64,000 bases of DNA from contig JAZRRE010000031.1 in NCBI GenBank assembly GCA_045650505.1, positions 95,885 through 159,884 of the forward strand. The letters are read 5' to 3'. Positions 11,410 through 61,615 of this stretch are shown one piece after another (position 1 is the stretch's first letter; each line of letters opens with the position of its first letter). The notes beneath the pieces were generated by a model. That model made no database searches and was not told the DNA's origin. It worked only from the letters and a program-made list of their open reading frames with translations. The position numbers and the translations under genes were made by a program. The DNA comes from Clostridia bacterium (GTDB taxonomy: Bacteria; Bacillota; Clostridia; Christensenellales; UBA1242).

Positions 11410-11466
11410 AATAAATTTGCTCCTATATATTTTTTGATAAATGCCAAAAGGCATAATTTCTATCAT

Positions 11467-11496: not shown

Positions 11497-11510
11497 GAAC
11501 TAAAAACAAT

Positions 11511-11548: not shown

Positions 11549-11557
11549 AAGTAAATA

Positions 11558-12259
11558 TTATTTTGTTTCTTCAACAGCAGCTTTTTTAACAACGCGAATA
11601 ACACGTTTAACAAGGCAAGCGTTGATGAATTTTTTAGTCTTTTTGAGTGAAACAAGGAATGCAATATAAAGTGCGATATTCACCACAATCATTGCAGACA
11701 TTGAAAGCACAAAATAAGAAAGTGTTGAAGTGATTCCTGATTCAAAGAATAAAATTTTAACAGCAGAAACTACAAATTGAATAACTGTTGAAAACGCAAG
11801 TGAATAGCAAAGAACAGAGAATGTGATAAATTTATTTGATGCTTTAAGTCTGTTCTTTTCATCTTTTTGAACGTTATAGAAGATTGAAACACTCAAAATG
11901 TTGATTAAGAATGCAATGTAAGCATAGAAAATAATGATTCCAATTTTGTTAAGGTAAAGCCCTGCAAGGTAATATGTGTTTGTAAAGAGGAAAAATGCGA
12001 TATAAAACATTATTCGAAGCCAAGAAGGGAACATAATACTCTTAAATTTTGAAATTGAAAATCCAAAAATATAAAGTGCCAAACAGCAAAGTGCTAAAAT
12101 GTATGCTGCCACATAGCTAAACTTTTCAGGAACTGAAAAGCTTGTGATTCCAAAAAGATTAAATGAAATCAAAAGCAAGTGAATAGCAGTGAAAAATAGC
12201 GCAAATGATAAAGTTAAGTTGCAGGCAAATTCGTTTTTAGTAATTTTTTTCATAGTCAT
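11558..12259 (-). CDS. multi-pass membrane protein, unknown function (233 aa)
   Basis: About six hydrophobic helices. Starts 5 nt after the dnaN stop. Not part of the usual origin gene set. Confidence 0.75.
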   Translation of the reverse strand: MTMKKITKNEFACNLTLSFALFFTAIHLLLISFNLFGITSFSVPEKFSYVAAYILALCCLALYIFGFSISKFKSIMFPSWLRIMFYIAFFLFTNTYYLAGLYLNKIGIIIFYAYIAFLINILSVSIFYNVQKDEKNRLKASNKFITFSVLCYSLAFSTVIQFVVSAVKILFFESGITSTLSYFVLSMSAMIVVNIALYIAFLVSLKKTKKFINACLVKRVIRVVKKAAVEETK

Positions 12260-12264
12260 ATCCT

Positions 12265-13368
12265 TTATTCAACGATTCTAACAGGGAGAATTAAATATAA
12301 ATATTTATCTTCTTCAGCAGAGCAAATTGTGCAAGGCGCAATTTGAGAAGTGAAATTCATTTTAATAAATTCATCAGTGATTGTGTGCATACAATCGCTT
12401 AAATATCTTGCGTTGAAAGCAATTTGCAAATCTTTTCCATCAAGAGAGATTGTGATGTTTTCGGTAACATTACCAATGTTTGAAGCAGAGGTGAGTGTTA
12501 AAATTCTATCACGAATATCAAATTTAACAAGATTGTTCTTGTCCATTCTAGCAAGCAAACTTGCTCTCTCTAAACCATCTTCAAGTTGAGCTTTGCTAAC
12601 GAGAATAGTTGTTGTTGTGCTAACAGGAATAACTTTGTGATAGTCAATAAATTCACCCTCTAAAAGTCTAGTGATGATTCTAACAGAACCGTCATCAATC
12701 ATCATATGGTTTGCACCAATCAAGATGTCAATATAATCATCGTTTCCATCAATAAGCTTTGAAATTTCGTTAAGGCTTCTTGCTGGAATGATGCAAGACA
12801 TTTTGTTTGAAGTGCATTTAACTTCTGTTTTAACCATTGCAAGACGATATCCATCAAGAGCAACTGCTGTCATTGTGTTGTTTTCAATTTCAAAAAGGCA
12901 ACCTTTCAAAATTGGTCTAGCATCATCAACAGCAACAGAGAAAATTGTTTTTTCAATAAGCTCTTTAAGGTCAGTTCTTTTGATTGTGATTTTTTCAGGT
13001 GTTGAAAGTTCACGAATGATAGGGAATTCATCAGCTGAAAGGCATTGAAGATAACCCTCACTGTCGGTATATTTAATTTTGATAGTGTTTTGGTCGGTAA
13101 GTGTGAGTTCAATTTGTTCGTTTGAAAGTTTTTTCACAAAGTCAGCAAAGAACTTTCCAGGAACAACCACATCACCAGGAATTTTAACATCTGCAGCAAT
13201 TGTCTTTTCAATAGAAATTTCAAGGTCAGTTGCAGAAAGTGTTAAAGTGTCTTCGCTTGCGTGAAGCTTGATACCTTCAAGTATAGGATTTGTTGTTCTA
13301 ACAGCAGTTGCACGAATAACCTTTAAAACTGCATCGCTTAAATCTAATCCTTCACAAATAAGTTTCAT
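12265..13368 (-). CDS. dnaN: DNA polymerase III beta sliding clamp
   Basis: 367 aa with a three-domain clamp pattern, ending ...LYLILPVRI. Directly downstream of dnaA. Confidence 0.95.
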   Translation of the reverse strand: MKLICEGLDLSDAVLKVIRATAVRTTNPILEGIKLHASEDTLTLSATDLEISIEKTIAADVKIPGDVVVPGKFFADFVKKLSNEQIELTLTDQNTIKIKYTDSEGYLQCLSADEFPIIRELSTPEKITIKRTDLKELIEKTIFSVAVDDARPILKGCLFEIENNTMTAVALDGYRLAMVKTEVKCTSNKMSCIIPARSLNEISKLIDGNDDYIDILIGANHMMIDDGSVRIITRLLEGEFIDYHKVIPVSTTTTILVSKAQLEDGLERASLLARMDKNNLVKFDIRDRILTLTSASNIGNVTENITISLDGKDLQIAFNARYLSDCMHTITDEFIKMNFTSQIAPCTICSAEEDKYLYLILPVRIVE

Positions 13369-13385
13369 AATATTCTCCTTAAATT

Positions 13386-14789
13386 TTATTTTCCTTCAAT
13401 CATTTTTTTGAGGTCGTTTATTTCAACATCAAGTTTTTTTGACTTTTTAATATCATCTTGAACTTTGTTTTTGGCGTAAAGCACTGTTGAGTGGTCTTTT
13501 CCAAAAATGTTTCCAACGGCTTCAAGTGGAATGTTGATAAATTCTGTAATTAAATACATTGCAATTTGTCTTGCTTCGGCAATTTGTTTTGTTCTTTTTC
13601 TAGCAAGAAGCTCTTCTTTTTTAACGTTATAGAATTTGCAAACAATATCAATAATTTTTGTTGCATCAATGGTTTCTTCATCTTCTTTTGCAATATCTTT
13701 AAGTGCTTCTCTTGCAGTTGCAAGTGTCACGATATCTTCTTTTTGAAGAGAAGAGTAGAACACTGCACGAGAAAGATAGCCTTCCATTGTTCTAATGTTT
13801 GATGTTGAAAGTTCAGCAATATATTCAATAACTTCTCTTGAAACATTAAAACGTTCTTGTTGAGCCTTTTTATTGAGTATTGCAATTTTTGTTTCAATAT
13901 CAGGAACACTGATGTCGGCAAGCATACCCCATTCAAGACGAGAACGAAGTCTTTCTTCAAGTGGGTTTAACTCTTTTGGCTGTTTATCAGAAGTAATAAT
14001 GATTTGCTTTCCTTTTTGATGAAGTTCATTGAAAATGTTGAAGAACTGTTCTTGAGTTTGTTCTTTCTTTATTATGTGTTGAATGTCATCAATAATCAAA
14101 ACATCTGCGTTTAAATAAGTTTCTTTAAACTTTGAAGCAGTTTTTGTTTGAAGTGAGTTAACAAAATCATCGGTGAACTTATAAGTTGTGACATAAATAA
14201 CATTAAGTTCTGGGTGATTTTCTGTTATGTGGTTTCCAATCGCGTAGAGAAGGTGAGTTTTTCCAAGACCTGGTCCACCATAAATAAAGAGTGGGTTAAC
14301 TTTCTTTCCAGGTTCTTCTGCAACAGCTTTTGCGATTGCTGCAGCAAACTTGTTGCTTGAACCAATGATAAAGTTGTCGAAATTATATTTAGGGTCAAAC
14401 TTGAAACTTGGGTTTTCGATTGCAGGTGACGGATTGTTCTCATCAACATAAACACGCTCTTTCACTGTTTCAGGTTCTTTTTCAATTTCTTTTGTTGATT
14501 CTGCTTCACTATCATCTTTAACAACAATTTCAACATTTGTGATTGCCTTGTAAACTTTGTTTGAAGCATTTGTGATAATCTTTTTGTAATTCTTGTTAAG
14601 CATATCTTTTGCACTTTTTGTTGATGTTGCAAGAACAATAGTGTTTTCTTTAATGTCAATTACATCAAGTGTTCGAATCCAAACATCAAAGGCAAACATA
14701 GAAGTTTCTTTAACGATTTCTTCTTTAATGCTTTCCCAAAGAGTGAGAATGTCAATGTTTGTTGATGAAATAAAGTCGTTATTTTCCAA
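13386..14789 (-). CDS. dnaA: chromosomal replication initiator DnaA (TTG start)
   Basis: Walker A GGPGLGKTHL, box VII, C-terminal DNA-binding segment DHSTVLYA. The start codon is TTG, 6 nt after GGAGG. Confidence 0.97.
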   Translation of the reverse strand: MENNDFISSTNIDILTLWESIKEEIVKETSMFAFDVWIRTLDVIDIKENTIVLATSTKSAKDMLNKNYKKIITNASNKVYKAITNVEIVVKDDSEAESTKEIEKEPETVKERVYVDENNPSPAIENPSFKFDPKYNFDNFIIGSSNKFAAAIAKAVAEEPGKKVNPLFIYGGPGLGKTHLLYAIGNHITENHPELNVIYVTTYKFTDDFVNSLQTKTASKFKETYLNADVLIIDDIQHIIKKEQTQEQFFNIFNELHQKGKQIIITSDKQPKELNPLEERLRSRLEWGMLADISVPDIETKIAILNKKAQQERFNVSREVIEYIAELSTSNIRTMEGYLSRAVFYSSLQKEDIVTLATAREALKDIAKEDEETIDATKIIDIVCKFYNVKKEELLARKRTKQIAEARQIAMYLITEFINIPLEAVGNIFGKDHSTVLYAKNKVQDDIKKSKKLDVEINDLKKMIEGK

Positions 14790-14822
14790 AAGAAACCTCC
14801 AAGGTGTAATAATTCATTTTTA

Positions 14823-14851
14823 ATTATATAAGTTAATAAATTAAAAATCAA
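14823..14851 (-). promoter_or_regulatory. dnaA promoter
   Basis: On the minus strand: TTGATT, a 17-nt spacer, then TATAAT. Confidence 0.6.
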
Positions 14852-14911
14852 GGAGTTTCTCTGGACTTTGTTAAAAAGTTACAAACGAAATCTTGAAACT
14901 TTGAGATTTGC

Positions 14912-14940
14912 TCGACAATTCTCTTAAAAATTTATATAAT
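14912..14940 (+). promoter_or_regulatory. recF promoter
   Basis: TCGACA (14912-14917), a 17-nt spacer, then TATAAT (14935-14940). Confidence 0.55.
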
Positions 14941-14975
14941 AATGCTAGAAAAAATTAAGCATTTAGTGAGAATTT

Positions 14976-16082
14976 ATGCAGGTTAAATGGGTGAAACTTA
15001 AAAACTTTAGAAACTACAACGAAGCCGTTGTGGAATTTTTTCCACGCATAAATTTAATTTCTGGTCAAAATGGTCAAGGCAAAACCAACCTTGTTGAGGC
15101 TGTAATGCTAAACGCACTTTCAAAAAGCCCAAGAACTTCGCACGATGAAGACCTTAAACTGCAGGGTGAAACCCACACTGAAGCCGAAGTTTGTGTTTCA
15201 AGAAATTATGGTGATGTGACTATTAAATGTGTGCTTGACAGTGAGTGTGGAAAAAAGTTTTTTATCAACTCAAACGAAGTTAAAAAAGTGAGTGAAATTT
15301 TTGGAAGTTTGGTGGCTGTTTATTTTTCTCCAAACGACCTTAAAATTGTCAGTGAATCACCGGCAGAACGTCGTGATTTTATGGATACTGACATTTCTCA
15401 ACTTTCAGGCTCTTATTATAATCTTTTGCAAAGATACAATAAAATTCTCTTTCAAAGAAACAAACTTTTAAAAACTGTGCACGATAGAGCGCTTCTTGCT
15501 GACCAGATTGATATTTGGAATGAGCAACTTGCAAGCGTTGCGGGCTATATTGTTAAAACCAGAAAAAACTTTATTGAAAAACTTAAAGAGCCAGCAAAAG
15601 CCACAATGAAATATATGACCAAAGAAGCCGACAATCTTGACATTATTTATGTTGGGGCACAAGGTGAAACCGCTGAAGAAATCAAAGCCGAAATTTTGAA
15701 ATCTTTAAAATTTAATTTTGAAAAAGATATTGAACTTGGTTACACAAGTGTTGGTCCACATCGTGATGACATTAAATTTGCCCTTAATGGAAAAGATGCA
15801 AAAGTGTTTGCAAGTCAGGGTCAACAACGAAGCATTGTGCTTGCTTTAAAACTTGCAGAGATTGAAGTTTTTGAAAAAGAAATCGGTGAGAAACCAATTC
15901 TTGTTTTAGATGATGTGTTCAGTGAACTTGACTCATCAAGGCAAAAGAAATTATATGACAAATTTGAGGGTGGGCAGGTGCTTATGACAGGTACTGCATT
16001 TAAGTTTAAACCGGCTGAAGATTATTTGGCACTCACCGTTAAAAATGGGGTTGTTAAATCAAAAATCGTTTCAAAAAAATAA
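14976..16082 (+). CDS. recF: DNA replication and repair protein RecF
   Basis: Walker A GQNGQGKTN, signature-like FASQGQQRS, Walker B ILVLDDVFSELD. Confidence 0.95.
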   Translation: MQVKWVKLKNFRNYNEAVVEFFPRINLISGQNGQGKTNLVEAVMLNALSKSPRTSHDEDLKLQGETHTEAEVCVSRNYGDVTIKCVLDSECGKKFFINSNEVKKVSEIFGSLVAVYFSPNDLKIVSESPAERRDFMDTDISQLSGSYYNLLQRYNKILFQRNKLLKTVHDRALLADQIDIWNEQLASVAGYIVKTRKNFIEKLKEPAKATMKYMTKEADNLDIIYVGAQGETAEEIKAEILKSLKFNFEKDIELGYTSVGPHRDDIKFALNGKDAKVFASQGQQRSIVLALKLAEIEVFEKEIGEKPILVLDDVFSELDSSRQKKLYDKFEGGQVLMTGTAFKFKPAEDYLALTVKNGVVKSKIVSKK

Positions 16083-16089
16083 AGCAAAT

Positions 16090-16121
16090 AAAAAACACAC
16101 CAAATTCGGTGTGTTTTTTTG
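16090..16121. terminator. bidirectional terminator
   Basis: Stem ACACACC/GGTGTGT flanked by an A-run and a T-run. Confidence 0.8.
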
Positions 16122-16448
16122 TTATTGATTTGATGGTCCACTTTGAGAATTTCCATTAGCGAGATTTCTAAAAATGTTATCAATTCTGTCAATCAAGTCA
16201 TATGCTTTTCTGATTTTTACTTGCGTGTCAGTGATTTTATCTATTCTTTTCATAGCGTCTTCAAAAGAATTAACAACCATAAGTCTTGGAGTTTCTCTTA
16301 TTCTTTTTTCGCCACTCTCAATAAACTTCAAACATTCATTTCGATAATATTTAAGTGCTTCAACAATGAATCTTGTTCGGGTGTAAACCACAGAGCCGTC
16401 ATCAAGTTTTGCTTCATAGTATTTATCTTCAATAAAAAAACTCGCCAT
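16122..16448 (-). CDS. hypothetical protein (108 aa from the ATG at 16448)
   Basis: The ORF track starts at a TTG that sits inside the GGAG. The ATG GCG at 16448 lies 6 nt after GGAG. No family recognised. Confidence 0.6.
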   Translation of the reverse strand: MASFFIEDKYYEAKLDDGSVVYTRTRFIVEALKYYRNECLKFIESGEKRIRETPRLMVVNSFEDAMKRIDKITDTQVKIRKAYDLIDRIDNIFRNLANGNSQSGPSNQ

Positions 16449-16522
16449 AAACATCTCCAATTAATATGGTTTTATTATAAACCAACAAATTAGATTTGTA
16501 AATAGCAAGTTTTTTGTTTTTA

Positions 16523-17257
16523 TTAACCAGCAGAGAAGGTGAATCCTTCTTGAGTTCTTTCAACTTCGTCACCGGTTCCATTAATCATATCATCAATCAT
16601 ATTTCCAGCTTGCATACCGGTGTTTGATGCGGTTCCCATATTTTGTTCACACGCACCTTTAACTTGGTCAGGATTCATTTCTTGAGCAACACTCACATAA
16701 ATGATTTCAGTGAGAGCTTCAAGAAGGGTGTGTCCGGTGGTTTTGATTGCAGCTGTTCTTGAACCAAAGTTTTTAAAGTTAACTCCGGCTTGACCTCTGT
16801 CTAATTCACTCAAATCAATGTTGGCTTGTCTAACAGCAGACTTAATTTTTTCGCGAATATAGTTTTTTGCAGATTCGCCTTGACCCTTTAATGATTCAAG
16901 TTCTCCCGGACCAAAAGGAACAGTGAATTTGATTCGTTTAGAGCTTCCGCCCTCTTGTGATTTATCTTTTCCTTGTGAAATTTCATTTGCGGTGGCACGG
17001 AGTGCATCATCTAAACTTTCTTTAACAATTCCGCCATTTTTCTTATTCCAAGGCTCTGCATCGTTTTCTTCTGGCATAACAACTTTAACAATTGTTGAAT
17101 TTTCAGAAAGTTTCTTCCATTCTTTTTCAGGAATGTGTTTGCTTACAGCACTTTTAAGCACTTGATAAACCGCTTCTGGGTCTTGACCTTTAAGTTCTTG
17201 AAGGTTGATATCTTCTTTAATATTTTTAACAGTATCTTTTGATGTATTTTCAGCCAT
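16523..17257 (-). CDS. hypothetical protein (244 aa)
   Basis: RBS AAGGAAAC. Charged N-terminal half, Gly/Met/Asn-rich C-terminus. No family recognised. Confidence 0.7.
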   Translation of the reverse strand: MAENTSKDTVKNIKEDINLQELKGQDPEAVYQVLKSAVSKHIPEKEWKKLSENSTIVKVVMPEENDAEPWNKKNGGIVKESLDDALRATANEISQGKDKSQEGGSSKRIKFTVPFGPGELESLKGQGESAKNYIREKIKSAVRQANIDLSELDRGQAGVNFKNFGSRTAAIKTTGHTLLEALTEIIYVSVAQEMNPDQVKGACEQNMGTASNTGMQAGNMIDDMINGTGDEVERTQEGFTFSAG

Positions 17258-17433
17258 AATTTTGTTTCCTTATATCTTGATAATTTCATTATAGCTAAAA
17301 ATTTAAAAAAGTAAAACAAATTAAAAATTTAACTTTTTTATTTTAAAGTGTCAAATTTCGGCAAAAAAATGGCATATTTTTGCTATAAATATATATATAT
17401 TATAATATAATTATATATATAGGGCAAAATCGT

Positions 17434-17463
17434 TTGTTTTAAGGCTATTTTTTGTGCTATAAT
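17434..17463 (+). promoter_or_regulatory. gyrB promoter with extended -10 (TGcTATAAT)
   Basis: TTGTTT-like -35, then TGCTATAAT at 17455-17463, about 35 nt upstream of the ATG. Confidence 0.5.
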
Positions 17464-17494
17464 ACAGCTGTGTTAAAATAAATTTAAAGGGTGA

Positions 17495-19414
<1,920 letters not shown>

Positions 19415-19423
19415 GGGGAAATT

Positions 19424-21955
19424 ATGGCAAAGAAAAGAGATTATAGTTTAGAACATGAAAAAATCATTGACAACACAGTCATTCATCCTGTTGAAATCAA
19501 TGATGAAATGAAAAAAAGTTTCATTGCTTATGCAATGGCTGTTAACGTTTCAAGAGCCATTCCTGATGTTAGAGATGGTTTGAAACCGGTTCACAGAAGA
19601 ATTTTATATTCAATGAATGAAGTGGGAATCACTTCTGATAAACCACATAAAAAATGTGCGAGAATCGTCGGTGACGTTCTTGGAAAATATCACCCACATG
19701 GTGACAGTTCAGTTTATGGCGCACTTGTTAGACTTGCGCAAGATTTTGCAATTCGTTATCAACTTGTTGAAGGTCACGGAAACTTCGGTTCTGTTGATGG
19801 TGACCCACCAGCAGCTTATCGTTACACTGAAGCAAGACTTTCAAAGCTTGCAGGTGAAATGCTTCGAGATATCGACAAAGAAACCGTTGATTTCTCACCA
19901 AACTTCGATGCAACTTTAAAGCAACCTGATGTGCTTCCAGCAAGATTCCCAAACCTTCTTGTTAATGGTTCAGATGGTATCGCGGTTGGTATGGCAACAA
20001 ACATTCCACCACACAACCTTAACGAAGTTGTCAACGCAACAATCGCAGTACTTAATAACCCAGAAATCACAATCGAAGAAATTATGGAAATTATGCCAGC
20101 ACCTGATTATCCAACAGGTGGCGTGATTATGGGCACTGATGCACTCCGTCAAGCATACCTCACAGGTAAAGGCGGTGTGGTTATTCGTTCAAAAACCGAA
20201 ATTGAAGAAGATAATGATGGCAAATCAAGAATCGTAGTAACCGAAATTCCTTATCAAGTGAATAAGGCTGAAATGATTAAGCAAATCGCTGAAATGGTTA
20301 AAAATAAGCGTATTGAAGGCATTAGTGATATCAAAGAAGAATCTGATAGACACGGTATGCGTTTGGTGTTTGATGTTAAGCGTGATGCAAATGCACAAGT
20401 TGTGCTTAACACACTCTTTAAAAAGACACAACTTCAATGCTCTTATGGCATTAATTTCTTGGCTCTTGTTGATGGTTATCCAAGAGTTTTAAACATTAAG
20501 CAAATTTTAGAAAATTATATTGCTCACCAAAAAGAAGTTATTTATAGAAGAACAAAGTTTGATTTAAACAAAGCTGAAGAAAGAGAACATATCATTGAAG
20601 GCTTGGTTGTGGCTCTTGCAAATATTGATGAAGTTATCAAAATCATCAAGGCTTCAAAAGATAGAGAAGAGGCTTCAAACAGTCTTCAATCAGCATTTAT
20701 GCTTTCAGCAGTTCAAGCTGGTGCTATTCTTGATATGCGTCTTCAAAGACTCACAAGCCTTGAAGTTGAAAAACTCAACAACGAACTTGCTGACCTTCGA
20801 GCACTCATCATTGAACTTAAAGGCATTCTTGCTAGCGAAGAAAAAATTAAAGGCGTTATTGCTAAAGAACTTGGTGAAGTTTGTGAACAATATGGTGATG
20901 AAAGAAAGACAGAAGTTGATTACACTTCTTCAACTGACATCAATATTGAAGACCTCATTGAAAAAGAAGATGTTGTTATTTCAATGACACACTTTGGATA
21001 TGTTAAACGTATCCCTGTGACTGAATATAAACAACAACACCGTGGTGGAATGGGCACAACAACCCACAAGCCAAAAGAAGAAGACTTTGTTGAACATATG
21101 TTCATTTGCTCAACACATGACACACTTATGTTCTTCACAAATAAAGGTAAGGTTTATTCACTCAAAGGTTATGATATTCCTGAAGAGCAAAAGACAGCAA
21201 GGGGAAGAAACCTTGTGAATCTTTTAGAGCTTGAAAAAGAAGAAAGAGTTCAAGCAATTCTTCCAAAAATGCCAGAAAATAAAGGCTTTATTATGATGGC
21301 AACCCGTGATGGTCTTGTGAAGAAAACTCCTGCTGAAGAATTTGAAAGCATTAGAAAAACCGGAAAAATCGCTATCGCACTTGGTGGTAGTGATGAACTT
21401 GTGAATGTTGAATACACCGCTGGTGAAGACACTGTTATGGTTGCAACATTTAACGGAAAATGTATAAGATTCCCAGAAACCGATTGCAGACCTCTTGGTC
21501 GTGACACAATGGGTGTTAAGGCTATTGACCTTGAGCGTGGTGATTATATTGTTGATATGCTTGTTTACAAAGAAGGCAAAGACATTTTAACAATCACAGA
21601 AAAAGGCTATGGCAAGAGAACTGATGTTAGTGAATATAAAGTTCAAAACAGAAACGGAAAGGGTATTAAAGCCGGCATTTTCAACGAAAAAACCGGAAGA
21701 CTTGTTGGTCTTAAACAAGTTAGTGAAGATGAAGATGTAATGATTATTGCAAACAACGGAATCATCATTAGAACTCCAGCAAATGCAATTTCAAGAATCA
21801 CTCGTGACACCATTGGTGTTAAGGTTATGCGTCTTAAAGAGGGCGACAGCGTTTCTTGCGTTGCTATTGCAGACACCGTTGCTGAAGACATCACTGGTGA
21901 AACCGATGAAGACCCAATCATTATTGATGAACCAATCGTGACTGATGCAGAATAA
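19424..21955 (+). CDS. gyrA: DNA gyrase subunit A
   Basis: [12 protein letters not shown] and the active-site region [10 protein letters not shown] (the quinolone-resistance-determining region in other species). GyrA-box-like QQHRGGMG. Confidence 0.98.
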
Positions 21956-38153: not shown

Positions 38154-38873
38154 ATGTCATGCGAAAATGAAAAAAGATTTTTAATATTATTTTCTTCTTA
38201 TTGTCTTGGTAATAATGCAACTAAAAAGAATGTATTAGATTATATTGAACAAATGGGTTGGATTGTTTTTTCAAAAGATGATTTAGAAGTTAGACAAAAT
38301 AGAAACGAGTTAATATGGCGTAACGACTTTGCTTTTGTCAGAAAACATCTTGTTATGCATGGATTATTAGAAAATAAAAGAAATTTCTGGACAATAACAC
38401 ATAAAGGAAGGAGCGAACTTTTTAATATTTATAAGCAAATTCTTCGTGATAAAACCATTCGTAAAATTACACAAAAAGCACTTAATGATTTTTTAGAATT
38501 TTCTTCACAAGAGGAGATATTTGAAGATATATTTGAAGACAAAACTGGGTTTTTAGAGGGAAAAATAAAAACAATTCAACATATTACGCATGAAAGAAAT
38601 AATAAATTAATTGAATTGGCAAAGTTGAAATTTAAACAATCGCATAAAGGTAAAATATACTGTGAAGTTTGTGGATTTGATTTTGGTTGTGTTTATGGTA
38701 AAAGAGGTGAATATTATATCGAGGCACATCATAAAAAACCAATATCTGAATTAAATGAAAATACAGAAACTAACATTGAAGATATTATTATGTTGTGTTC
38801 TAATTGTCATAGAATGATACATAGAAATAAACCTTGGTTAACTATTGAAGAATTAAAAAACATTGTTAAATAA
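38154..38873 (+). CDS. HNH endonuclease with an N-terminal Mrr_N-like winged-helix domain (239 aa)
   Basis: The C-terminal segment CEVCGFDF...EAHHKKP...CSNCHRMIH is an HNH motif. The N-terminal segment IWRNDFAFVRKHLVMHGLLENKRNFWTITHKG resembles the Mrr N-terminal winged helix. TTA/ATA-rich codons differ from the neighbours. Confidence 0.75.
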   Translation: MSCENEKRFLILFSSYCLGNNATKKNVLDYIEQMGWIVFSKDDLEVRQNRNELIWRNDFAFVRKHLVMHGLLENKRNFWTITHKGRSELFNIYKQILRDKTIRKITQKALNDFLEFSSQEEIFEDIFEDKTGFLEGKIKTIQHITHERNNKLIELAKLKFKQSHKGKIYCEVCGFDFGCVYGKRGEYYIEAHHKKPISELNENTETNIEDIIMLCSNCHRMIHRNKPWLTIEELKNIVK

Positions 38874-43064: not shown

Positions 43065-43859
43065 TTAAAAATATGTTTTTGTTGCGTTTTTAATGCGTTC
43101 GCATTCGGCATTAGAAACACAAACTTTTCCGCGATTAAGAATTGCAAATGCTGGAAAATTGTTGTCATAAACAGCATCATAACCAAGAAGAATTGCCGTT
43201 ATTGATGGGTCATTTAAAAGAGTGTAGAAGAATGCTGTTTGATGTTTTGGTTCGGGAATTGCAAGTGTGAAATTTTTAATTTCTTCTAAAATTTGTTTAT
43301 GGCTTTCAACTGATGGTTCTTCACCATTAAAAATTCTTGATAAATCAATTTTTAAAGTGAAATCATCAATAATTTTTAAGTCTGGGGCTTTGAATTTGAG
43401 CACACAGTCGTGTTTAGAATTTTTGCTGCTATAAAGGTTTGCTTTGTCATAAATGTCTGATGCAAACAAACCATTGCAAGCGTCACCAACACCTTTATGA
43501 TAATGTTCATCAAACAAAAGATTTGCGTGATGTTCAATTTCACGAACTCCACGATAAAGTTCTTTGCCTTTAATGTGATGACCAAGATAGTTAAAATGAA
43601 ATCCGTCAAGTTTTGCATATTTTTCATTTGAAATGATTTGTGGAAGGTCGGTGTAACCAACGGCCTCAACCATTTGTGCAAAAGCTTGAATTCGAAATTC
43701 TTGTTCGGCAAGTTTTTTGTAATAGTCATCAAGGTTTGGATTTTGTGGGTCAGGGAAAACATTTATAGATGGCAAAACGCCAAGTTCGGCTTCTAAATTT
43801 ATCATTATTTCATAAAGCTTATTTAGTTTTTGTGATGTTGTTAAATTTTTCATAATCAT
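43065..43859 (-). CDS. hypothetical protein (about 264 aa)
   Basis: An extended -10 (TGaTATAAT at 43878-43870) lies 10 nt upstream of the ATG at 43859, so the upstream part of the ORF-track call is untranscribed. No family recognised. Confidence 0.65.
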   Translation of the reverse strand: MIMKNLTTSQKLNKLYEIMINLEAELGVLPSINVFPDPQNPNLDDYYKKLAEQEFRIQAFAQMVEAVGYTDLPQIISNEKYAKLDGFHFNYLGHHIKGKELYRGVREIEHHANLLFDEHYHKGVGDACNGLFASDIYDKANLYSSKNSKHDCVLKFKAPDLKIIDDFTLKIDLSRIFNGEEPSVESHKQILEEIKNFTLAIPEPKHQTAFFYTLLNDPSITAILLGYDAVYDNNFPAFAILNRGKVCVSNAECERIKNATKTYF

Positions 43860-43954
43860 ACCAAAAAAAATTATATCACAGCAAAAGAAATTCGTAAATA
43901 CCAAAACTTAAAATAGCTGCATAAAAATAGATTTTAACGATTTTTAAAAAAACA

Positions 43955-45779: not shown

Positions 45780-46472
45780 ATGAAGAAATTTGGTAAGAAT
45801 TATAGAAATGCTTCTGAAAAAATCGAAGCCGGAAAACTTTATGAAGTTGCTGATGCTTTAGCACTTGCTATCGACACTGCAACAGCAAAATTTGATGAAA
45901 CAATCGAAATTCACATTCGTCTTGGTGTTGACCCAAGAAGTGCTGACCAACAAGTTCGTGGAAGCGTTGTTCTTCCTAACGGAACTGGTAAAACAGCAAA
46001 AGTTGTTGTTATCGCTAAAGGTGACAAAGCTGATGCAGCTAAAGCAGCTGGTGCTGATGTTGTTGGTGCAGAAGAAATCGTTGACAAGATTATGAAAGAA
46101 AACTGGCTTGATTTCGACGTATGTATCACAACTCCTGATATGATGGGTGTTGTAGGTAGATGTGCTCGTGTTCTTGGACCTCGTGGTTTAATGCCAAACC
46201 CAAAGAGCGGCACAGTTACTATGGACGTTGAAAAGGCTATCAAAGATGTTAAAGCTGGTAAAGTTGAATACAGAGTTGACAAATTTGGTATCGTTCACGC
46301 TGCAATCGGTAAAAAGAGCTTTGGCGTTGAAAAACTTATGGAAAACTATGATACATTTGTTGATGCTATCGTTAAAGCTAAACCACAAGCTGCTAAAGGA
46401 ACATACATTAAGTCTGTTAACCTTGCAAGCACAATGGGACCTGGCGTTAAAGTTATGTACAGAGCAAAATAG
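45780..46472 (+). CDS. rplA: 50S ribosomal protein L1
   Basis: [40 protein letters not shown]. Confidence 0.97.
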
Positions 46473-46487: not shown

Positions 46488-46518
46488 AAGTCTTAACCTA
46501 AAGGTTAAGGCTTTTTTC
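46488..46518 (+). terminator. terminator after rplA
   Basis: Stem AGTCTTAACC/GGTTAAGGCT (one G-U pair), then T6. Confidence 0.8.
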
Positions 46519-46648: not shown

Positions 46649-49600
46649 ATGGCTGATTCAATAAGCTTAAAAGATAAAAAGTTACAAAGAAAACAAAATC
46701 AATTAAAAGGCAAAGAATTTAAGCAAGAACAACAGGCAAATGCTGAAAAAGAAATAAAAGAAATGTCTGCTGATGTTCAAAAAGATTCTCGTTCTTCAAG
46801 ATTGAAAAGTTTATCTGAAGCAAAAAAGAAAGAAATGCTTGAAGAGTATGAAAGGGTTGTAAAAAAACTTAAAGAACTTGAACTTCGCAACAAAAAGAAA
46901 GAAGACTTTAAGTATAAATTTAAAAACCTTAATTATTTTCCAACTTTGAATGGTCATTCAGTGTATAGTGAAAGTATGCAGTCTCAAGCAAAAGCAGATA
47001 AAGATTCAATTTCTGCCATGATGGCTTATGGTCAACTTGGCGCAGGTTTTGAAGTTACTTTCGAACAAATGACACAATATATCCGCCCAGAAAGAAAACA
47101 AGAATTTCTTGCTCTTTGCAAAAATAACCCAGAACTTTCGCATAACCTTATGGGTATGACAAAGGTGCTTCAATTTTATAATCAAAGAGATTTCACTAGA
47201 GCCTATGCTGCGATGGTGTTTTTTGGTCTTGAAAACAATATGGACCTTATGGAAACCTTTTTAAAGGTTAAGTTTAATGCTGACTTCAAACAACAAGTTG
47301 ATAAATTTAAATTGCAAATTGCAATGGCTTCATCTTATGAAGAAAAAGAAATTAGAACTGAAGCGGGAACAAATGTTTTCAGCCAACACGATGCCGCAAC
47401 AACAGCAATACTTTCTTCTTATACCGGAAAAGAAGTTGATTTTACTTCAAAAGAAGTTCGAGTTAAGATGTTTTCAAGTAATAAACAAGAGAAATCTGAA
47501 ACAAAAAAAATAAAAGAAGGTCAAATACAAGTGTTATCAGACATTTGTAAGGCAGCAAAAGAAGCAAGTGGAGGAGATGTTGAAAAATTTAAAAAAGAAG
47601 CACATAAAATGCTTCGTACTGTAGTTGATGCTGAAAAAACGGAAAAAAGGTTAGATATTGTAACAAAAGAAAATAAGGTAGTAGAGGGGATAAAGAGCGG
47701 AAAAATAACATCAGTGGGTTTATTTGGAACAACAATGGATACTGAAACCACTTTGGATACTTATACTTTAATTACAGGTGCGGAAAAGGCAAAATTAGAT
47801 GCAAAAGTTGAAGAAGATTTTCAGGATATAATGTTTGTAAGCTTAACAGAGGAAATAGAAAAACGAAAGAAGGCAATGGATGAAAATCCTACACCTGAAA
47901 ATATTGCAGCATATAAACAAATAATGGGAGTTGTAAAAGCAAGAAATGCTGCTAGAGCAGAAGAACTTAAAAGGCCAGACAAATTGTTAAAAAAGGCAAG
48001 AGAAAAATTATCAAAAGCTGAAACAGAAGAAGAAAAAGAAAGTTTAGAAATAGAGATTGCAGAACTTGAATTTGAGTGTAAATTAGATGTATTTTTAGAT
48101 AGAAAAGAACTAGAGAACATCAAAGAAAGACAAGATAGTGAAAAAGATAATTTTACACATATGTTGCAATTGAAAAAAATGATTACAGAAAGAGAGATGT
48201 TTTTAAACGAAGCAAAAAAAGCGGGTAGATATAAAGAGGGTTATGCTCTTTATCCTAAACTTGTTCAACTTGAACAAATGATTGGAGAAATGAAAGAGCT
48301 CAATAGAAAAAAAGCATCGGCAAATTTGGGTGCAATTAAGGATTATAAGGTAAATGAGAAAACTTCAGAATGGTTTTCAAGTTTTTCAGTTGAAAACCAT
48401 TTTAATATACTGAATAAAACAGAAATTGTACAAGGCGTTCCTGATTCAACCTTTGAAGTAATAAAAGATGGCTTGATAAATGGTCTATCAGGACAGGGAA
48501 CTGTTGATATAGGTTCTTCTGAAATTAAAGAATCAACATTAGAACAAAGTGAAGGTGGTTTAGATATATCAACACTTTTAAAAGGTATAGGACCTCAAAT
48601 AAGATATTATGAAAACAATCATCCAAATGGATTTTCTGGATGGATTGATGTTGAAATAAGTAAATTTGAAACATTAATAGAGCAAGCATTAAGTCAAATA
48701 AAAAGTTTACCAAGTGAAAATATAAGTGAAATACAGTCTTTAACTGCCGACATTGAAAAATATAGAAGACAGATAGATATTCGTTTAGTGTATAAATCAA
48801 AATATGTTGAATATATAGAAAATGAAGAAAAATTAAAGCCTTCTAAAGGAAAAACACCAGAAGAAAAAATACAAGTTGCATTAAAAAAAATAGATTCGAA
48901 ATTAAGAACTCCAATTGATGGTAGACAAGAGTATATTGATGAGTTGAAACCAGAAGAAGTTCCGGCTAGAATAACAGATAAAACTATTAAAAATATTGTA
49001 AATATGGTTTTAGATTTATTGAGTGAAATCAATGAACTTGAATTGTCAAATATAAATGAAGAAACTTTATCAAAAATTAATATTTATTTAAACAAGACTT
49101 CAAATTTATTAGAACAATTACAAGGAAAAATTTCAGAAGAAGAATTTAATGCTTTAAAAGGAAGAAAAGAATTATTATCTGAAAACTTCAAAAAATTATC
49201 TGAAAAATCTTCAAAACCAAACGCAGGAGAAGAATTAGGAAGTGAATCTAGAGTAGAAAGTCCACAAGAATTAGTTAGTTTAAATATAAATTCAATAAAA
49301 ATATTGAAAAGAGAAGCTGTGATAAGAGTATTAGAAAGAAAAAATATTTCATTAGAAACTAAATTTTCAAGAGTTGCAACTTCTGAAACTAACGGATTTG
49401 ATGATACTTTTGAAGAATTTAAATATAGCAAAAAAGGAATGCGAAGATTTTTAGCAAACCAAAGAAAAAATCTTGAAAACGCAATAGCTGCTGGAGAAAA
49501 TGCTGAAAAAATTGAAGAACTTCAAGCTAAAATAAAGAGAATAGAAGACAGAATTCGTGAGTTAGAAATAGAACATAAACATTTATCAAGTATAAGAATG

Positions 49601-49762
49601 GAATTTGATAATTCACCTTCAGGAACAGGAGCAGATGCTTTATTTGCAGAAACGGAATTTCCGCCAAGTGAACCAGCAGGACAAACTGGATTGACCGCTG
49701 AAAAAGCAAAAGAAGAGGCTGAAATTGAAATAGCATTACTTGGAAAACAACCTCCAAAATAA
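46649..49762 (+). CDS. very large charged coiled-coil protein, unknown function (1037 aa)
   Basis: Uninterrupted ORF. Start trimmed to the ATG after GAGGTG. Lys/Glu-rich, no transmembrane segment, no recognisable enzymatic motif. Codon style changes near 47.5 kb. Confidence 0.8.
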   Translation: MADSISLKDKKLQRKQNQLKGKEFKQEQQANAEKEIKEMSADVQKDSRSSRLKSLSEAKKKEMLEEYERVVKKLKELELRNKKKEDFKYKFKNLNYFPTLNGHSVYSESMQSQAKADKDSISAMMAYGQLGAGFEVTFEQMTQYIRPERKQEFLALCKNNPELSHNLMGMTKVLQFYNQRDFTRAYAAMVFFGLENNMDLMETFLKVKFNADFKQQVDKFKLQIAMASSYEEKEIRTEAGTNVFSQHDAATTAILSSYTGKEVDFTSKEVRVKMFSSNKQEKSETKKIKEGQIQVLSDICKAAKEASGGDVEKFKKEAHKMLRTVVDAEKTEKRLDIVTKENKVVEGIKSGKITSVGLFGTTMDTETTLDTYTLITGAEKAKLDAKVEEDFQDIMFVSLTEEIEKRKKAMDENPTPENIAAYKQIMGVVKARNAARAEELKRPDKLLKKAREKLSKAETEEEKESLEIEIAELEFECKLDVFLDRKELENIKERQDSEKDNFTHMLQLKKMITEREMFLNEAKKAGRYKEGYALYPKLVQLEQMIGEMKELNRKKASANLGAIKDYKVNEKTSEWFSSFSVENHFNILNKTEIVQGVPDSTFEVIKDGLINGLSGQGTVDIGSSEIKESTLEQSEGGLDISTLLKGIGPQIRYYENNHPNGFSGWIDVEISKFETLIEQALSQIKSLPSENISEIQSLTADIEKYRRQIDIRLVYKSKYVEYIENEEKLKPSKGKTPEEKIQVALKKIDSKLRTPIDGRQEYIDELKPEEVPARITDKTIKNIVNMVLDLLSEINELELSNINEETLSKINIYLNKTSNLLEQLQGKISEEEFNALKGRKELLSENFKKLSEKSSKPNAGEELGSESRVESPQELVSLNINSIKILKREAVIRVLERKNISLETKFSRVATSETNGFDDTFEEFKYSKKGMRRFLANQRKNLENAIAAGENAEKIEELQAKIKRIEDRIRELEIEHKHLSSIRMEFDNSPSGTGADALFAETEFPPSEPAGQTGLTAEKAKEEAEIEIALLGKQPPK

Positions 49763-49764
49763 AA

Positions 49765-49800
49765 CAAAAACACACAGAATTTTCTGTGTGTTTTATTTTT
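49765..49800 (+). terminator. terminator after the 1037-aa gene
   Basis: Stem CACACAGAA/TTCTGTGTG followed by a T-run. Confidence 0.8.
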
Positions 49801-49843
49801 GACAAAATTCGAAGTTTGAAATTTCAAATAAAGAAATTGACTA

Positions 49844-49872
49844 TTGACATTAGAGTTTTTATTTTTTATAAT
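49844..49872 (+). promoter_or_regulatory. consensus promoter of the 212-aa gene
   Basis: TTGACA, a 17-nt spacer, then TATAAT. Confidence 0.65.
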
Positions 49873-49898
49873 GAAATTGTTTAGAGGGGAGGTGTGTG

Positions 49899-50537
49899 AT
49901 GGAAGACCAACTTACAGTTTCTGAAAAATTGGGGATTATTGACAATTTATTAGAAAATATTGTGTTTGATATTGGACATAAGGGGGCTAAATTTTACAAT
50001 ATTACCATAGAAGAAGAATTAGTAGATGGAATTAGCAGCCATACAGGAAAAGCTTTTTCGACTGATGGTGTTAATATTTTTGGTTTCACTTATGATGACA
50101 ATGGAGAAAGAAGTGGAATTGTTAGCAGGCTTTTGTCTGGAACTTATATAAAAGATAAAGGGGTTTCTCTTTACACAATACCTTTTGATGCCTTTTTTAT
50201 TCAAAACAATATTATGGATACGGTTGTTGATGCAACACATAGACCAGATTATACAAAAATGCATGGTAGATTTTGGAATACTTTAGCAAGAGTTACCATT
50301 ACTCCAGAAACAGATGTAATCGCTGCGGAAACACACGTGCAACCTTTTATTGATTGTTGTAATTTATGGAAAGATATGGATGATGAATTTACTGACAGGT
50401 TTATGTCGTTAACAACAAAAGCATATCAACAAGATATGAATATTGCATTTATTAATAAACTTTATGATTTTGCTAAAGATATGCCAATTCCGGCGTGTTT
50501 TGCAGATGATGGGGTTGCACCTAAAACAAAAATGTAA
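49899..50537 (+). CDS. hypothetical protein (212 aa)
   Basis: ATG at 49899 after AGAGGGGAGGTG (the ORF track uses the GTG at 49896). ATA/TTA/GGA-rich codons. No family recognised. Confidence 0.7.
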   Translation: MEDQLTVSEKLGIIDNLLENIVFDIGHKGAKFYNITIEEELVDGISSHTGKAFSTDGVNIFGFTYDDNGERSGIVSRLLSGTYIKDKGVSLYTIPFDAFFIQNNIMDTVVDATHRPDYTKMHGRFWNTLARVTITPETDVIAAETHVQPFIDCCNLWKDMDDEFTDRFMSLTTKAYQQDMNIAFINKLYDFAKDMPIPACFADDGVAPKTKM

Positions 50538-50541
50538 GAAT

Positions 50542-50572
50542 AAAAACTAGCAAGAAATTGCTAGTTTTTTTT
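50542..50572 (+). terminator. terminator after the 212-aa gene
   Basis: Stem CTAGCAA/TTGCTAG, then T8. Confidence 0.8.
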
Positions 50573-50665: not shown

Positions 50666-51301
50666 TTATTGACCTTCGCCATAAGTTGTTTTTAAATATT
50701 CTTCAGCATTGAAAGCACCATATCTGCCTTTGTTTTCCATAAGAGCATTTTCGGCAACAACTTTTTCGTTTAATGATTTAAGTTTGATTTTCATTGATTT
50801 TGGAAGTGCTGCATAAGCATTTCTAGCTTGTTCATCTTTATGTTTTCTTCTTTTTTCTGCATAAGATGGGAATCTTGGAGTTAAAAGGTCTGATGTGATG
50901 ATATCGGCAATTGCTTCTTCAGGAGCTTTGTCAATTGAATCACAGTATGTTACAAATGCAGGGTAGTCAAAAGTTGAACCTGTTGCACCCTCTTTTGGAT
51001 TGCAAATAACAGCAAAATCAAAGTCATTAAAAATTACTTCAAAGTTTTCGCAAACAACATTGGTGAAATCAACACCATTTTCATCTTGATATTTTTCGTG
51101 AGCAAGATAGCCAAAATCTGTGAAGAAATCAACAATTTCTTTATTTGAAAGTTTTGAAAGAAATGTGCGTTGTTTTGGTTTTCCATCAGCTTGAATAGGA
51201 ACTGATTTTTTTTGTGGAACGCCAAAAAGACTAGCACTTGCACGCGCTAATTCTTCTTTAGACACTTTAGACACTTTAGACACATTTCTAGAATTTGCCA
51301 T
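50666..51301 (-). CDS. hypothetical protein (211 aa) with an N-terminal VSKVSKVSK repeat
   Basis: RBS AAGAGGAGTG. No family recognised. Confidence 0.7.
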   Translation of the reverse strand: MANSRNVSKVSKVSKEELARASASLFGVPQKKSVPIQADGKPKQRTFLSKLSNKEIVDFFTDFGYLAHEKYQDENGVDFTNVVCENFEVIFNDFDFAVICNPKEGATGSTFDYPAFVTYCDSIDKAPEEAIADIITSDLLTPRFPSYAEKRRKHKDEQARNAYAALPKSMKIKLKSLNEKVVAENALMENKGRYGAFNAEEYLKTTYGEGQ

Positions 51302-51391
51302 AGAAAAAAATCACTCCTCTTAAAACTGTTATTATTATAACATATAAAATATGCTATTTCAAGATGGTTTTTTAAATTTTTATAAAAACTA

Positions 51392-51419
51392 TTGACAAAA
51401 CTTTTATAATGGTTATAAT
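51392..51419 (+). promoter_or_regulatory. rplJ-rplL promoter
   Basis: TTGACA, a 16-nt spacer, then TATAAT. Confidence 0.65.
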
Positions 51420-51425
51420 ATGTTT

Positions 51426-51577
51426 TGTTAAAAAGATTAGTGCCGAAGACAGCAAGTGAAGGGCAATCGCCATTCTTAATATCTTGCCGAGGAATATATG
51501 AGATAAAATGGTATCCTTATGTTCCTATGAGCATAAGGTTTTTTTAATGCTTCACACAAAAAATTTAGGAGGAAAAT
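51426..51577 (+). promoter_or_regulatory. ribosomal protein L10 leader-like 5' UTR with a terminator/attenuator hairpin
   Basis: About 150 nt of structured leader (…GTGCCGAAGACAGCAAGTGAAGGGCAATCGCC…). A hairpin CCTTATG/CATAAGG plus T7 lies at 51513-51546, just before the rplJ RBS. This matches the layout of the Firmicutes L10 leader as I recall it; no covariance model was run. Confidence 0.55.
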
Positions 51578-52069
51578 ATGTCAGCAAATTTTGAAAATAA
51601 GAAAGTAGTTGTAAGCGAAATCGAAGCTCTTGCTAAAGATGCTAAATCTATTGTGCTTGTTGACTATCGTGGTCTTTCAGTTGCTAATGCAACTGCACTT
51701 AGAAACGAAGTTAGAAATGCTGGTGGTGTTTACAAAGTTTACAAAAACCGACTCATGAAGATTGCTTTTGAAAAACTTGGTATTGCTTTCCCAGAATCTG
51801 ATTTTGAAGGCACAACAGCTGTTATATTCCATAACACTGACGAAGTTGCTCCTGCTAAAATTGCACTTGATGGTTTCACAAAATATGAAAAGAAATTAAA
51901 ATTAAAATCAGGTTTTGTAAGTGGAAAATACTTCAACACAGAAGAAATCACAGCACTTGCAAACATTCCATCAAGAGAAGTTTTGGTTGCTCAACTTCTT
52001 GGTTTGCTTACAAACCCTATGCGTTCTCTTGCTGTTGCTATCAGCGAAGTTGCTAAAAAGAATGCATAA
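51578..52069 (+). CDS. rplJ: 50S ribosomal protein L10
   Basis: VLVDYRGLSVANATALRNEVR. Position upstream of rplL. Confidence 0.95.
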   Translation: MSANFENKKVVVSEIEALAKDAKSIVLVDYRGLSVANATALRNEVRNAGGVYKVYKNRLMKIAFEKLGIAFPESDFEGTTAVIFHNTDEVAPAKIALDGFTKYEKKLKLKSGFVSGKYFNTEEITALANIPSREVLVAQLLGLLTNPMRSLAVAISEVAKKNA

Positions 52070-60844: not shown

Positions 60845-61615
60845 ATGAAAAAGATTTTTAATTTAATGATTGCATTTATTTGCGTATTATGTACTACTAT
60901 GTTTGTTGGTTGTGATAATGCTAAATGTGAGCATACTGCAAGTGAAGATTGGGTAATGAATAACACACACCATTGGCATGAGTGTATTGAGTGTAATGAA
61001 AAGATGGATATGGCAAAACATGATTGGGAAGAAATTGTAATAGAAAACATTTCATCACAAAAGGACTTGGTATTATATGTATGCAAGGGTTGTGGTATGA
61101 AAGAATTTGATATATTTACCGTAACTGAACAAGAGTGGAATTTTGCACTCAATTTAAGTAGCTTTGATAAAGTTCAAGTGAATGCTCAAGGTAAAGACGA
61201 AAGTGGAAATGTTGTAGAAGCAACTATAACAAGAATCAAAGATGGCGATATTTTGTTAGAAACAATTATAGAAGATAGTGTAGAAACTAATGAATACTTT
61301 TCAAAAGAAAGTGATAAATATTATTCATATACTAAATCTGGTAATGATTGGATTAAGACAGAAATTGAGCAAGTTGACTATGAAGAAAAACTAAATCTTT
61401 TAAATGTAACTTGGAGGTATTCTGATTTTTCTTATAACAAATATACAAAAGCTTATGAGTATAATTATGAAGTTAATAATACTTCAGCGTTACTTCAAAT
61501 TTATTTTAAAAATGGAAGATTTACACAATTTAAAGTTACTTTATCTGATGGTTCTTCTGAAATATATACCATTGAATATGATAATGTTGAACTAGAATTA
61601 CCGATTGTTGATTAA
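60845..61615 (+). CDS. lipoprotein with a Cys/His-rich N-terminal module (256 aa)
   Basis: Signal peptide plus lipobox MFVGC. The mature N-terminus CDNAKCEH...HHWHECIEC...CKGCG looks like a zinc-binding module. GTA/TTA/ATA-rich codons. Confidence 0.75.
   Translation: MKKIFNLMIAFICVLCTTMFVGCDNAKCEHTASEDWVMNNTHHWHECIECNEKMDMAKHDWEEIVIENISSQKDLVLYVCKGCGMKEFDIFTVTEQEWNFALNLSSFDKVQVNAQGKDESGNVVEATITRIKDGDILLETIIEDSVETNEYFSKESDKYYSYTKSGNDWIKTEIEQVDYEEKLNLLNVTWRYSDFSYNKYTKAYEYNYEVNNTSALLQIYFKNGRFTQFKVTLSDGSSEIYTIEYDNVELELPIVD

Follow-up and report, generated by a model that had tools for sequence, protein, structure and literature searches.

Probable footprint of a recombining allelic cassette in the codon usage of a lineage-specific gene between ribosomal-protein operons of an uncultured Clostridia bacterium

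The stretch of 64,000 nucleotides (nt) of Clostridia bacterium contig JAZRRE010000031.1 analyzed here (positions 95,885 to 159,884, hereafter the window) is a chromosome segment of 32% GC that surrounds a likely replication origin, and it contains an uncharacterized lineage-specific gene of 1037 amino acids (aa) on the plus strand (46649..49762, the big gene) whose codon usage changes within the open reading frame (ORF). We propose that this change is probably the footprint left at the border of an allelic cassette of ~3 kb, swapped by homologous recombination in a vertically inherited gene. Strain comparisons place the cassette at 47420..50450 on the plus strand, with borders good to ~60 nt, and it comprises the C-terminal part of the big gene, the intergenic region, and the following 212-aa gene (49899..50537, plus strand) except for its last ~60-100 nt. 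The ORF would thus be a single gene fixed, together with a 211-aa gene on the minus strand, between the rplK-rplA and rplJ-rplL operons, and it would evolve under two regimes, with a strongly constrained helical N-terminal domain of ~258 aa and a charged, fast-evolving tail of ~780 aa. Cassettes would be exchanged among strains and sister species, using the DNA of the N-terminal domain as the left recombination anchor and the conserved 3′ end of the 212-aa gene (50450..50537) as the right one, and deeply diverged cassette types would coexist on near-identical genomic backgrounds. Inside the cassette, synonymous sites would lie near the AT-rich mutational equilibrium of the genome itself (TTA, ATA, GTA, and GGA), and outside it the preferred codons would be CTT, ATT, GTT, and GGT.

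A synonymous switch inside the big gene

The original prediction, a reading of the codons by eye, had claimed a switch from a native to a foreign-looking style inside the ORF, and we found that the switch is real. In a change-point test limited to synonymous choice, in which codons were shuffled among positions of the same amino acid, the maximum lay at nt 47423 on a plateau from 47,280 to 47,550 and was reached by 2 of 300 permutations. The N-terminal part, or N part (46649..47422, ~258 aa), is native in codon style, and the hypervariable C-terminal part, or C part (47423..49759, ~780 aa), which is rich in lysine and glutamate (K/E), has the codon usage expected from mutation bias. CTT makes up 55% of leucine codons in the window background, 64% in the N part, and 16% in the C part, and TTA makes up 23%, 23%, and 63%, respectively. 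In the same order, GTA accounts for 8%, 8%, and ~37-41% of valine codons, GGA for 27%, 22%, and 62% of glycine codons, and AGA for 57%, 55%, and 78% of arginine codons. For isoleucine, ATA rises from 10% in the background to 58% in the C part, the N part having too few such codons for a judgement (3 of 7 are ATA). Among 53 gene segments of the window, a combined TTA, ATA, GTA, and GGA index was highest in the C part, at 0.57, and stood at 0.21 in the N part. An earlier per-codon "nativeness" score gave no significant change point; it was dominated by K/E codons and was replaced by the synonymous-only G test.

We also compared, by leave-one-out likelihood, how well the codon usage of the window and a mutation-bias usage describe each gene segment of the window. 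The mutational model fitted better in only four of them, namely a lipoprotein-like gene at 60845, the C part, an HNH insertion at 38154, and the 212-aa gene. The unusual style had been said to run on through the 212-aa gene, and it does continue there, but in a milder form (TTA 50%, high GGA plus GGG, ATA 16%, and GTA 17%), and it ends at the 211-aa gene on the minus strand, which is fully native in style. A native-like patch suspected inside the C part was confirmed at ~48,150-48,330, where it overlaps a segment weakly conserved with one other allele of the protein (P0002; P numbers denote alleles and L numbers the related loci).

The switch had been placed at a run of eight adenines, the A8 homopolymer at 47503..47510 (ACA AAA AAA ATA, plus strand), and this placement did not hold, as the border lies ~50-100 nt upstream and the run falls 50-100 nt within the cassette. 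The same strand of the window has nine A8 runs, two of them in the C part, and the one discussed here is not preserved at the junction of 11 other alleles; its coincidence with the border is probably due to chance. Read in frame, the run fits the slippery pattern X_XXY_YYZ, and a shift to the −1 frame would meet a stop 13 codons on, just past the conserved domain. This pattern is probably meaningless. Because other alleles do not keep the tract and A8 runs abound here, frameshifting or phase variation at the run was rejected in general, although phase variation specific to this strain would be conceivable. The predicted extent of the unusual segment, 47,500-50,540, agrees within ~100 nt with cassette borders at ~47,420 and ~50,450, which indicates that a codon-usage break read by eye can place a recombining hypervariable cassette with about that precision.

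The C part and the downstream gene are replaced together

The view of the big gene as a mosaic, with a conserved N-terminal module and a replaceable C-terminal part (~780 aa), was borne out by a step-like loss of identity between near-conspecific genomes. Over 8.8 kb that extend to codon ~280 of the big gene, L001 and L008 share 98.1% identity; they have essentially no blastn match over the cassette apart from a 140-nt stretch of 74% identity at the 3′ end of the big gene, and return to 97.5% identity ~100 nt before the end of the small gene. In L004 and L007, a stretch of 96.7% identity is likewise followed by unmatched sequence and then by 94.8% identity. In both of these near-conspecific pairs the swap extends through most of the small gene, in line with the earlier suggestion that the downstream gene belongs to the replaced block. 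Fine mapping of the two pairs showed that identity falls from 95-100% to 20-55% and recovers to 97-100%, with the steps, in window coordinates, at 47,420-47,480 on the left and 50,430-50,480 on the right. The window itself is 89% identical to L004 up to nt 47,391 and 66-71% identical in patches thereafter.

The relationships of the two parts are incongruent, as the prediction of separate histories would have it. Across the family, the N-terminal module is 48-75% identical to that of the window protein, and 96-98% identical between members from the same or sister species, and the C parts of different types share 14-36% identity, with a few conserved islands and a common C-terminal motif, GSDxLFxE...AGxTG. 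Conservation ends at residue ~258, or nt ~47,423, which is the codon change point. At the protein level, the N and C parts share 96% and 24% identity between P0002 and P0006, 98% and 26% between P0005 and P0007, and 97% and 34% between P0008 and P0009. The corresponding values are 90% and 81% for P0004 and P0005, and 85% and 50% for P0006 and P0007, from which it follows that the same tail type occurs on different backgrounds. Between L001 and L013, synonymous divergence (dS) is 0.20 in the C part, 0.53 in the N part, and 0.75 in the 208-aa gene on the minus strand, and since the tail value is below those of the flanks, the cassette was shared more recently than the flanks. The tail of the window protein is itself a patchwork, with residues 281-540 and 720-800 nearest P0002, residues 401-440 nearest P0010, and residues 900-1037 common only to P0003. 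This last segment, a C-terminal extension (49349..49759, plus strand), is 48-62% identical to its counterpart in P0003; by eye it resembles a second end module of the form NGF...helical...GxDALFxE..AGxTG, and BLASTP found no self-match.

The ratio of nonsynonymous to synonymous divergence (dN/dS) is 0.51-0.65 in the C part, 0.12-0.23 in the N part, and ~0.01 in rplA and nusG, and in pairs of the same type it is 0.51-0.52 in the C part and 0.12 in the N part. A tail ratio of ~0.5, a low-complexity K/E-rich sequence with no detected domain, and codon usage at mutational equilibrium would all suit a linker under weak constraint that evolves very rapidly in situ, the codon shift then reflecting relaxed constraint with no recombination at all. 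We consider this account very improbable, because flanks that are 98% identical are incompatible with 26% protein identity in the tail under clock-like divergence, the same tail type is found on different species backgrounds (L007 and L008), dS in the cassette is lower than in the flanks in L001 and L013, and sharp borders recur at the same two places.

The locus is vertically inherited

The big gene directly follows rplA in every relative examined, and on contigs long enough to show them, the minus-strand gene (206-208 aa in the relatives) and rplJ come after it. L001, L002, L004, and L008 have the complete order of rplA, big gene, small gene or genes, 208-aa gene on the minus strand, and rplJ, and L005, L007, L009, L011, and L013 show the same order over the portion of the locus that their contigs cover. 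Since synteny of the three-gene block between rplA and rplJ is kept in all relatives, we conclude that the locus is vertically inherited. Inheritance of the whole ORF as one vertical unit thus holds for the locus but not for the C part, which is a swapped cassette. We found no flanking repeats or mobility genes at the block, and both cassette borders lie inside genes. Among the features of genomic islands, atypical composition is present; absence from close relatives at the same site was not seen, the block being syntenic in all of them.

The original prediction had explained the switch by horizontal acquisition, in which the C-terminal 750 aa and the next gene came recently from a donor rich in A-ending codons and were fused to a native N terminus. 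The abrupt onset of atypical codons within the gene is in its favor, as is the same style in a strain-specific HNH insertion at 38154-38873. Against it, every orthologue in every background shifts at the same border, the C parts are collinear homologues across the clade to which the family (23 representatives) is confined, the locus is syntenic everywhere, the style is the one that mutation in this genome is expected to produce, the carrier lineages have the CTT-type core style (tabulated for L001 and L002), and phage, plasmid, or viral relatives, mobility genes, and flanking repeats were not found. An imported foreign C terminus is thus already largely refuted, and we regard it as highly unlikely.

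Mutation bias accounts for the codon style

The same shift between N and C parts was present in all 11 alleles examined, at codon 243-258 in the orthologues, and these alleles include orthologues with saturated synonymous divergence from the window. The sampled flanking genes of the carrier lineages have low A-ending usage, and CTT-type leucine usage where this was tabulated (L001 and L002). A shift in all alleles and all backgrounds cannot be explained by a one-off import from a differently biased donor. We derived the mutation-bias expectation from the base composition of the intergenic regions of the window, and the C part came close to it with some extra A, the predicted and observed frequencies being 0.44 and 0.63 for TTA, 0.15 and 0.16 for CTT, 0.43 and 0.58 for ATA, and 0.37 and 0.37 for GTA. 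The N part, the 211-aa gene, and a K/E-rich SbcC-like gene match the core style, and it is this core style (CTT over TTA, ATT or ATC over ATA) that is the selected one. Because the C part matches the intergenic expectation and all alleles are shifted, its unadapted codons point to poor adaptation in a fast-evolving region and not to an outside donor. "Foreign-looking" codons, then, need no foreign donor, and here they would reflect adaptation that lags behind rapid protein evolution and the shuffling of alleles. We infer that weak selection on codon choice would be ineffective under rapid amino-acid turnover combined with recurrent recombination or linked selection.

Two other sources of the A-ending codons were considered and rejected. 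K/E richness showed no correlation with them (rho 0.15, p 0.30), the K/E-rich SbcC-like gene having native codons, and selection for accuracy at individual sites (Akashi-type) was not seen in the tail, where codon class does not track per-site conservation (p=0.65).

Two other genes of the window share this style. A 239-aa gene on the plus strand (38154-38873) is an insertion of ~720 bp specific to the window genome, between the TRAM/tRNA-U5-methyltransferase and NUDIX genes; it is absent in L001, L004, and L008, matches models of type IV methyl-directed restriction/HNH endonucleases (E 3e-7), and is the only PADLOC match, unrelated to the block. The lipoprotein-like gene at 60845-61615 on the plus strand, beginning MKKIFNLMIAFICVLCTTMFVGC..., is the gene of the window with the least adapted codons, and it may be another accessory or fast-evolving gene.

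Points that weigh against the cassette

Several points weigh against a swapped cassette as the explanation, or against parts of it. All comparison sequences are metagenome-assembled contigs, in which chimeric joins at conserved DNA are possible, though several assemblies would each have to contain a double switch. No conspecific relative (>95%) of the window genome was found, so that for this exact strain the evidence of a cassette replacement comes from its relatives and from its own mosaic tail. A dN/dS averaging ~0.5 over the tail is as compatible with relaxed constraint as with diversifying selection. Of the two versions of the codon explanation, the one based on selection for accuracy is unsupported, and the one based on reduced efficacy of selection is a proposal. 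Finally, no known domain, localization signal, or structural match gave a functional handle.

The first of these points leads to the possibility that the mosaics are assembly artefacts, chimeric contigs joined at conserved sequence. All relatives are indeed metagenome-assembled genomes (MAGs) or metagenome contigs, and each border adjoins highly conserved DNA, the kind of place at which an assembler can pass from one strain to another. We give this explanation very little credence, as each contig would need a double switch, the DNA of the N-terminal domain is only ~85-93% identical between the species involved, and the codon switch lies in the window sequence itself, independent of any comparison. 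Moreover, the same combinations of flank and cassette recur in separate assemblies, with L003 and L008 99.92% identical across both junctions, L011 and L012 100% identical, and P0002 on 5 contigs, and this recurrence argues against chimeric contigs.

A protein family with a conserved N-terminal domain

Relatives of the big protein are few: a search of 5.8 billion clusters yielded 12 proteins, one of 1.84 billion proteins yielded 23 representatives, and one of JGI metagenomes yielded none. The carriers belong to a small clade among the uncultured gut Clostridia, and the sole GTDB species representative is a MAG from goat caecum. The conserved domain is always N-terminal, in proteins of 575-1156 aa with no Pfam domain, and the closer family members align collinearly over nearly their full length. 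Residues 1-258 contain 79 invariant columns. A weak AlphaFold2 model of this module is all-helical, with an overall predicted local distance difference test (pLDDT) score of 59 and a core (residues 140-245) at 80-90. It had no significant match in the PDB, with no Foldseek match at E<1, and a profile of the domain found nothing among PDB sequences. A T4-lysozyme-like fold was rejected, since Foldseek matches to it appeared only at E>2. A canonical long coiled coil was also rejected for the tail, where most 56-aa windows lack the 3.5-residue periodicity.

No member of the block (the 1037-, 212-, and 211-aa genes) matched Pfam, NCBIfam, PHROGs, or PADLOC defence models. Phage, plasmid, or viral relatives were not found in the collections searched, which included PHROGs, BFVD, INPHARED, and IMG/VR. 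No signs of a diversity-generating retroelement (DGR) were seen, as there was no repeat like a template or variable repeat (TR/VR) in 46.0-51.7 kb and no reverse-transcriptase gene in the block. DGR, shufflon, and tandem-repeat variation were rejected for lack of suitable or invertible repeats.

The partner gene and its co-variation with the tail

The 212-aa gene varies together with the C part, its codons are in part unadapted, and it encodes a conserved C-terminal tail, KDIPIPACFADDGxAPKTKM. Its AlphaFold2 model (pLDDT 71) consists of a helix, an 8-stranded sheet, and then further helices. The resemblance to a LolA/GrlR-like fold was weak, with template-modeling (TM) scores of 0.2-0.33 when normalized to the query and up to 0.55 when normalized to the target (GrlR), and the model had no viral fold match. 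In most relatives the segment between the big gene and the minus-strand gene holds one gene of 209-215 aa, and two deeper relatives, L009 and L011, have the big gene and no gene downstream of it before the minus-strand gene. In L005, the big gene is followed by a tandem array of five paralogues of the 212-aa gene (10973-14640), the contig ending just beyond them; copies 2 and 3 are 99.5% identical, the last copy alone resembles the canonical partner (52% identity to that of the window), and the array contains no orphan C-terminal fragments. In L006 (3450-6731), three unrelated genes without Pfam match (274, 444, and 264 aa) replace the 212-aa gene and precede the minus-strand gene, here of 206 aa.

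The existence of deep allele types, the co-swapped and sometimes amplified partner gene, and the conserved tail of the partner lead us to suggest, tentatively, that the tail and its small co-varying partner may act together as a specificity module whose diversity would be maintained by diversifying or balancing selection in the face of an external antagonist (for example a phage, a competitor, or the host). A fuller version, in which a two-component specificity system (effector and immunity, or a phage-facing sensor and adaptor) with a new N-terminal domain would be maintained between ribosomal operons by balancing selection across species, is doubtful. If the tail and its partner were in fact a module for antagonistic interaction, they would constitute a new family.

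A resemblance to polymorphic toxin and immunity loci had been suggested, and it stands as far as the layout is concerned but not beyond it, since no toxin, trafficking, or immunity family was found and deeper relatives lack the small gene. The corresponding explanation would make the N-terminal domain a trafficking module for an unrecognized secretion route, the tail a toxin, and the 212-aa protein its immunity protein. A conserved N terminus, a variable C terminus, and an adjacent small gene that is swapped along fit such a system, the five-paralogue array of L005 resembles an immunity-gene array, the small gene has its own perfect promoter-like site, and other genes replace it in L006. Nevertheless, LXG, Rhs, CdiA, WXG, or other trafficking domains and toxin domains were absent in 26 family members, and searches of Pfam and NCBIfam with the window protein and 14 distant members revealed no trafficking or secretion domain at the N terminus. 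A match to Pesticin, a lysozyme-like toxin, in one of nine members scored 14-18 bits, below the cut-off of 25.8, and was rejected. The tails are collinear homologues with common islands and a common end motif and not unrelated C-terminal domains, L009 and L011 have no small gene downstream, the L005 array lacks orphan C-terminal fragments, and the fold matches of the 212-aa protein are weak. Reading the translations by eye, with no predictor run, we saw no signal peptide or transmembrane segment, and no dedicated secretion system lies near the locus in the 64-kb window or on the short contigs of the relatives. A toxin and immunity pair is thus unlikely.

Comparison with known variable loci

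The locus can be compared with several known systems. In the pilA allele groups of Pseudomonas aeruginosa, small downstream accessory genes of the tfpO/tfpY type are linked to each pilin type, and recombination takes place between conserved flanks. The present locus shares with these type IV pilin groups a fixed chromosomal position, a main protein with a conserved N terminus and a divergent C terminus, a small downstream gene particular to each allele type, and exchange by recombination between conserved flanks. Unlike a pilin, the big protein is ~1000 aa long, has no pilin or prepilin signature or leader peptide, and bears no sequence or fold relationship to that family, and the accessory gene is absent here in deeper relatives.

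Hypervariable surface-protein cassettes are known from slpA and the S-layer cassette of Clostridioides difficile, the central regions of flagellins, and the M proteins of streptococci. Deep allelic lineages within species, recombination at conserved borders, atypical composition and codon usage in the variable segment, and elevated dN/dS are common to these and to our locus. The big protein differs from them in having no signal peptide (by eye), cell-wall anchor, or flagellin domains and a tail that is mostly not a canonical coiled coil.

Polymorphic toxins (LXG and the type VII secretion system, CdiA-CT/CdiI, and Rhs) resemble the locus in the conserved N terminus, variable C terminus, adjacent small co-varying gene, and, in one relative, the paralogue array, but they differ in that here there is no trafficking or toxin domain, homology among the C parts extends from end to end, related lineages can do without the partner, and the locus is a syntenic part of the core genome. 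Phage tail-fiber or receptor-binding modules with their chaperones likewise combine a conserved N-terminal part with a mosaic C-terminal part that is swapped together with a small downstream gene; in contrast to them, our locus has no phage genes nearby and no relatives in PHROGs, BFVD, INPHARED, or IMG/VR, and lies between ribosomal-protein operons in all carriers. A recombining hypervariable locus is of a known kind, whereas the protein family is entirely uncharacterized and its position in a ribosomal-protein cluster is unusual and fixed. With near-identical N-terminal domains, tails of ~25% identity, and a partner gene that is swapped or amplified along with them, the locus illustrates in compact form how allelic diversity can persist for long in an uncultured lineage of the gut.

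Gene setting and neighboring features

The ribosomal-protein cluster has the order rpmG-secE-nusG-rplK-rplA ... rplJ-rplL, and the block of three genes, of 1037 aa (plus strand), 212 aa (plus strand), and 211 aa (minus strand), lies between rplA (45780-46472) and rplJ (51578-52069). Each of the three has its own promoter-like and terminator-like sites. A terminator-like hairpin after rplA (46488..46513, plus strand) parts the big gene from the rplK-rplA operon, and the ATG start of the big gene is preceded by a GAGGTG ribosome-binding site. The sequence further contains a bidirectional terminator-like hairpin after the big gene (49767..49794), a perfect promoter-like site, TTGACA-17-TATAAT, before the 212-aa gene (49844..49872, plus strand), and a terminator-like hairpin after that gene (50542..50569, plus strand). 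The 211-aa gene (50666..51301, minus strand), which is conserved and stands beside the big gene in every relative, lies outside the cassette. At the right edge of the inserted block is the L10 leader RNA before rplJ (51425..51554, plus strand), and rplJ has its own perfect promoter-like site (51392-51419) ahead of it. The DNA of this promoter and leader region (51286-51665; Rfam RF00557, 70 bits) is 93-100% identical across species, with neighboring genes at ~80-90%.

A 21-nt inverted repeat, 20 of 21 positions being complementary, links the spacer before the promoter of the 212-aa gene (49819-49839) with a site inside the 211-aa gene (51133-51153). No such pair arose in 30 block shuffles, and the intergenic arm is absent from all relatives.

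Farther from the block (12265-21955), the minus-strand genes dnaN-dnaA and the plus-strand genes recF-gyrB-gyrA point away from a likely origin at ~14.8-15.0 kb. The profiled stretch of 42-55 kb has a positive GC skew, so the genes studied here are probably on the leading strand. Upstream of rpmG, a 279-aa gene on the minus strand (43065-43904) has no family match; it is conserved in position in most relatives (256-268 aa), is absent in L005, and is another lineage-specific gene adjoining the ribosomal cluster.

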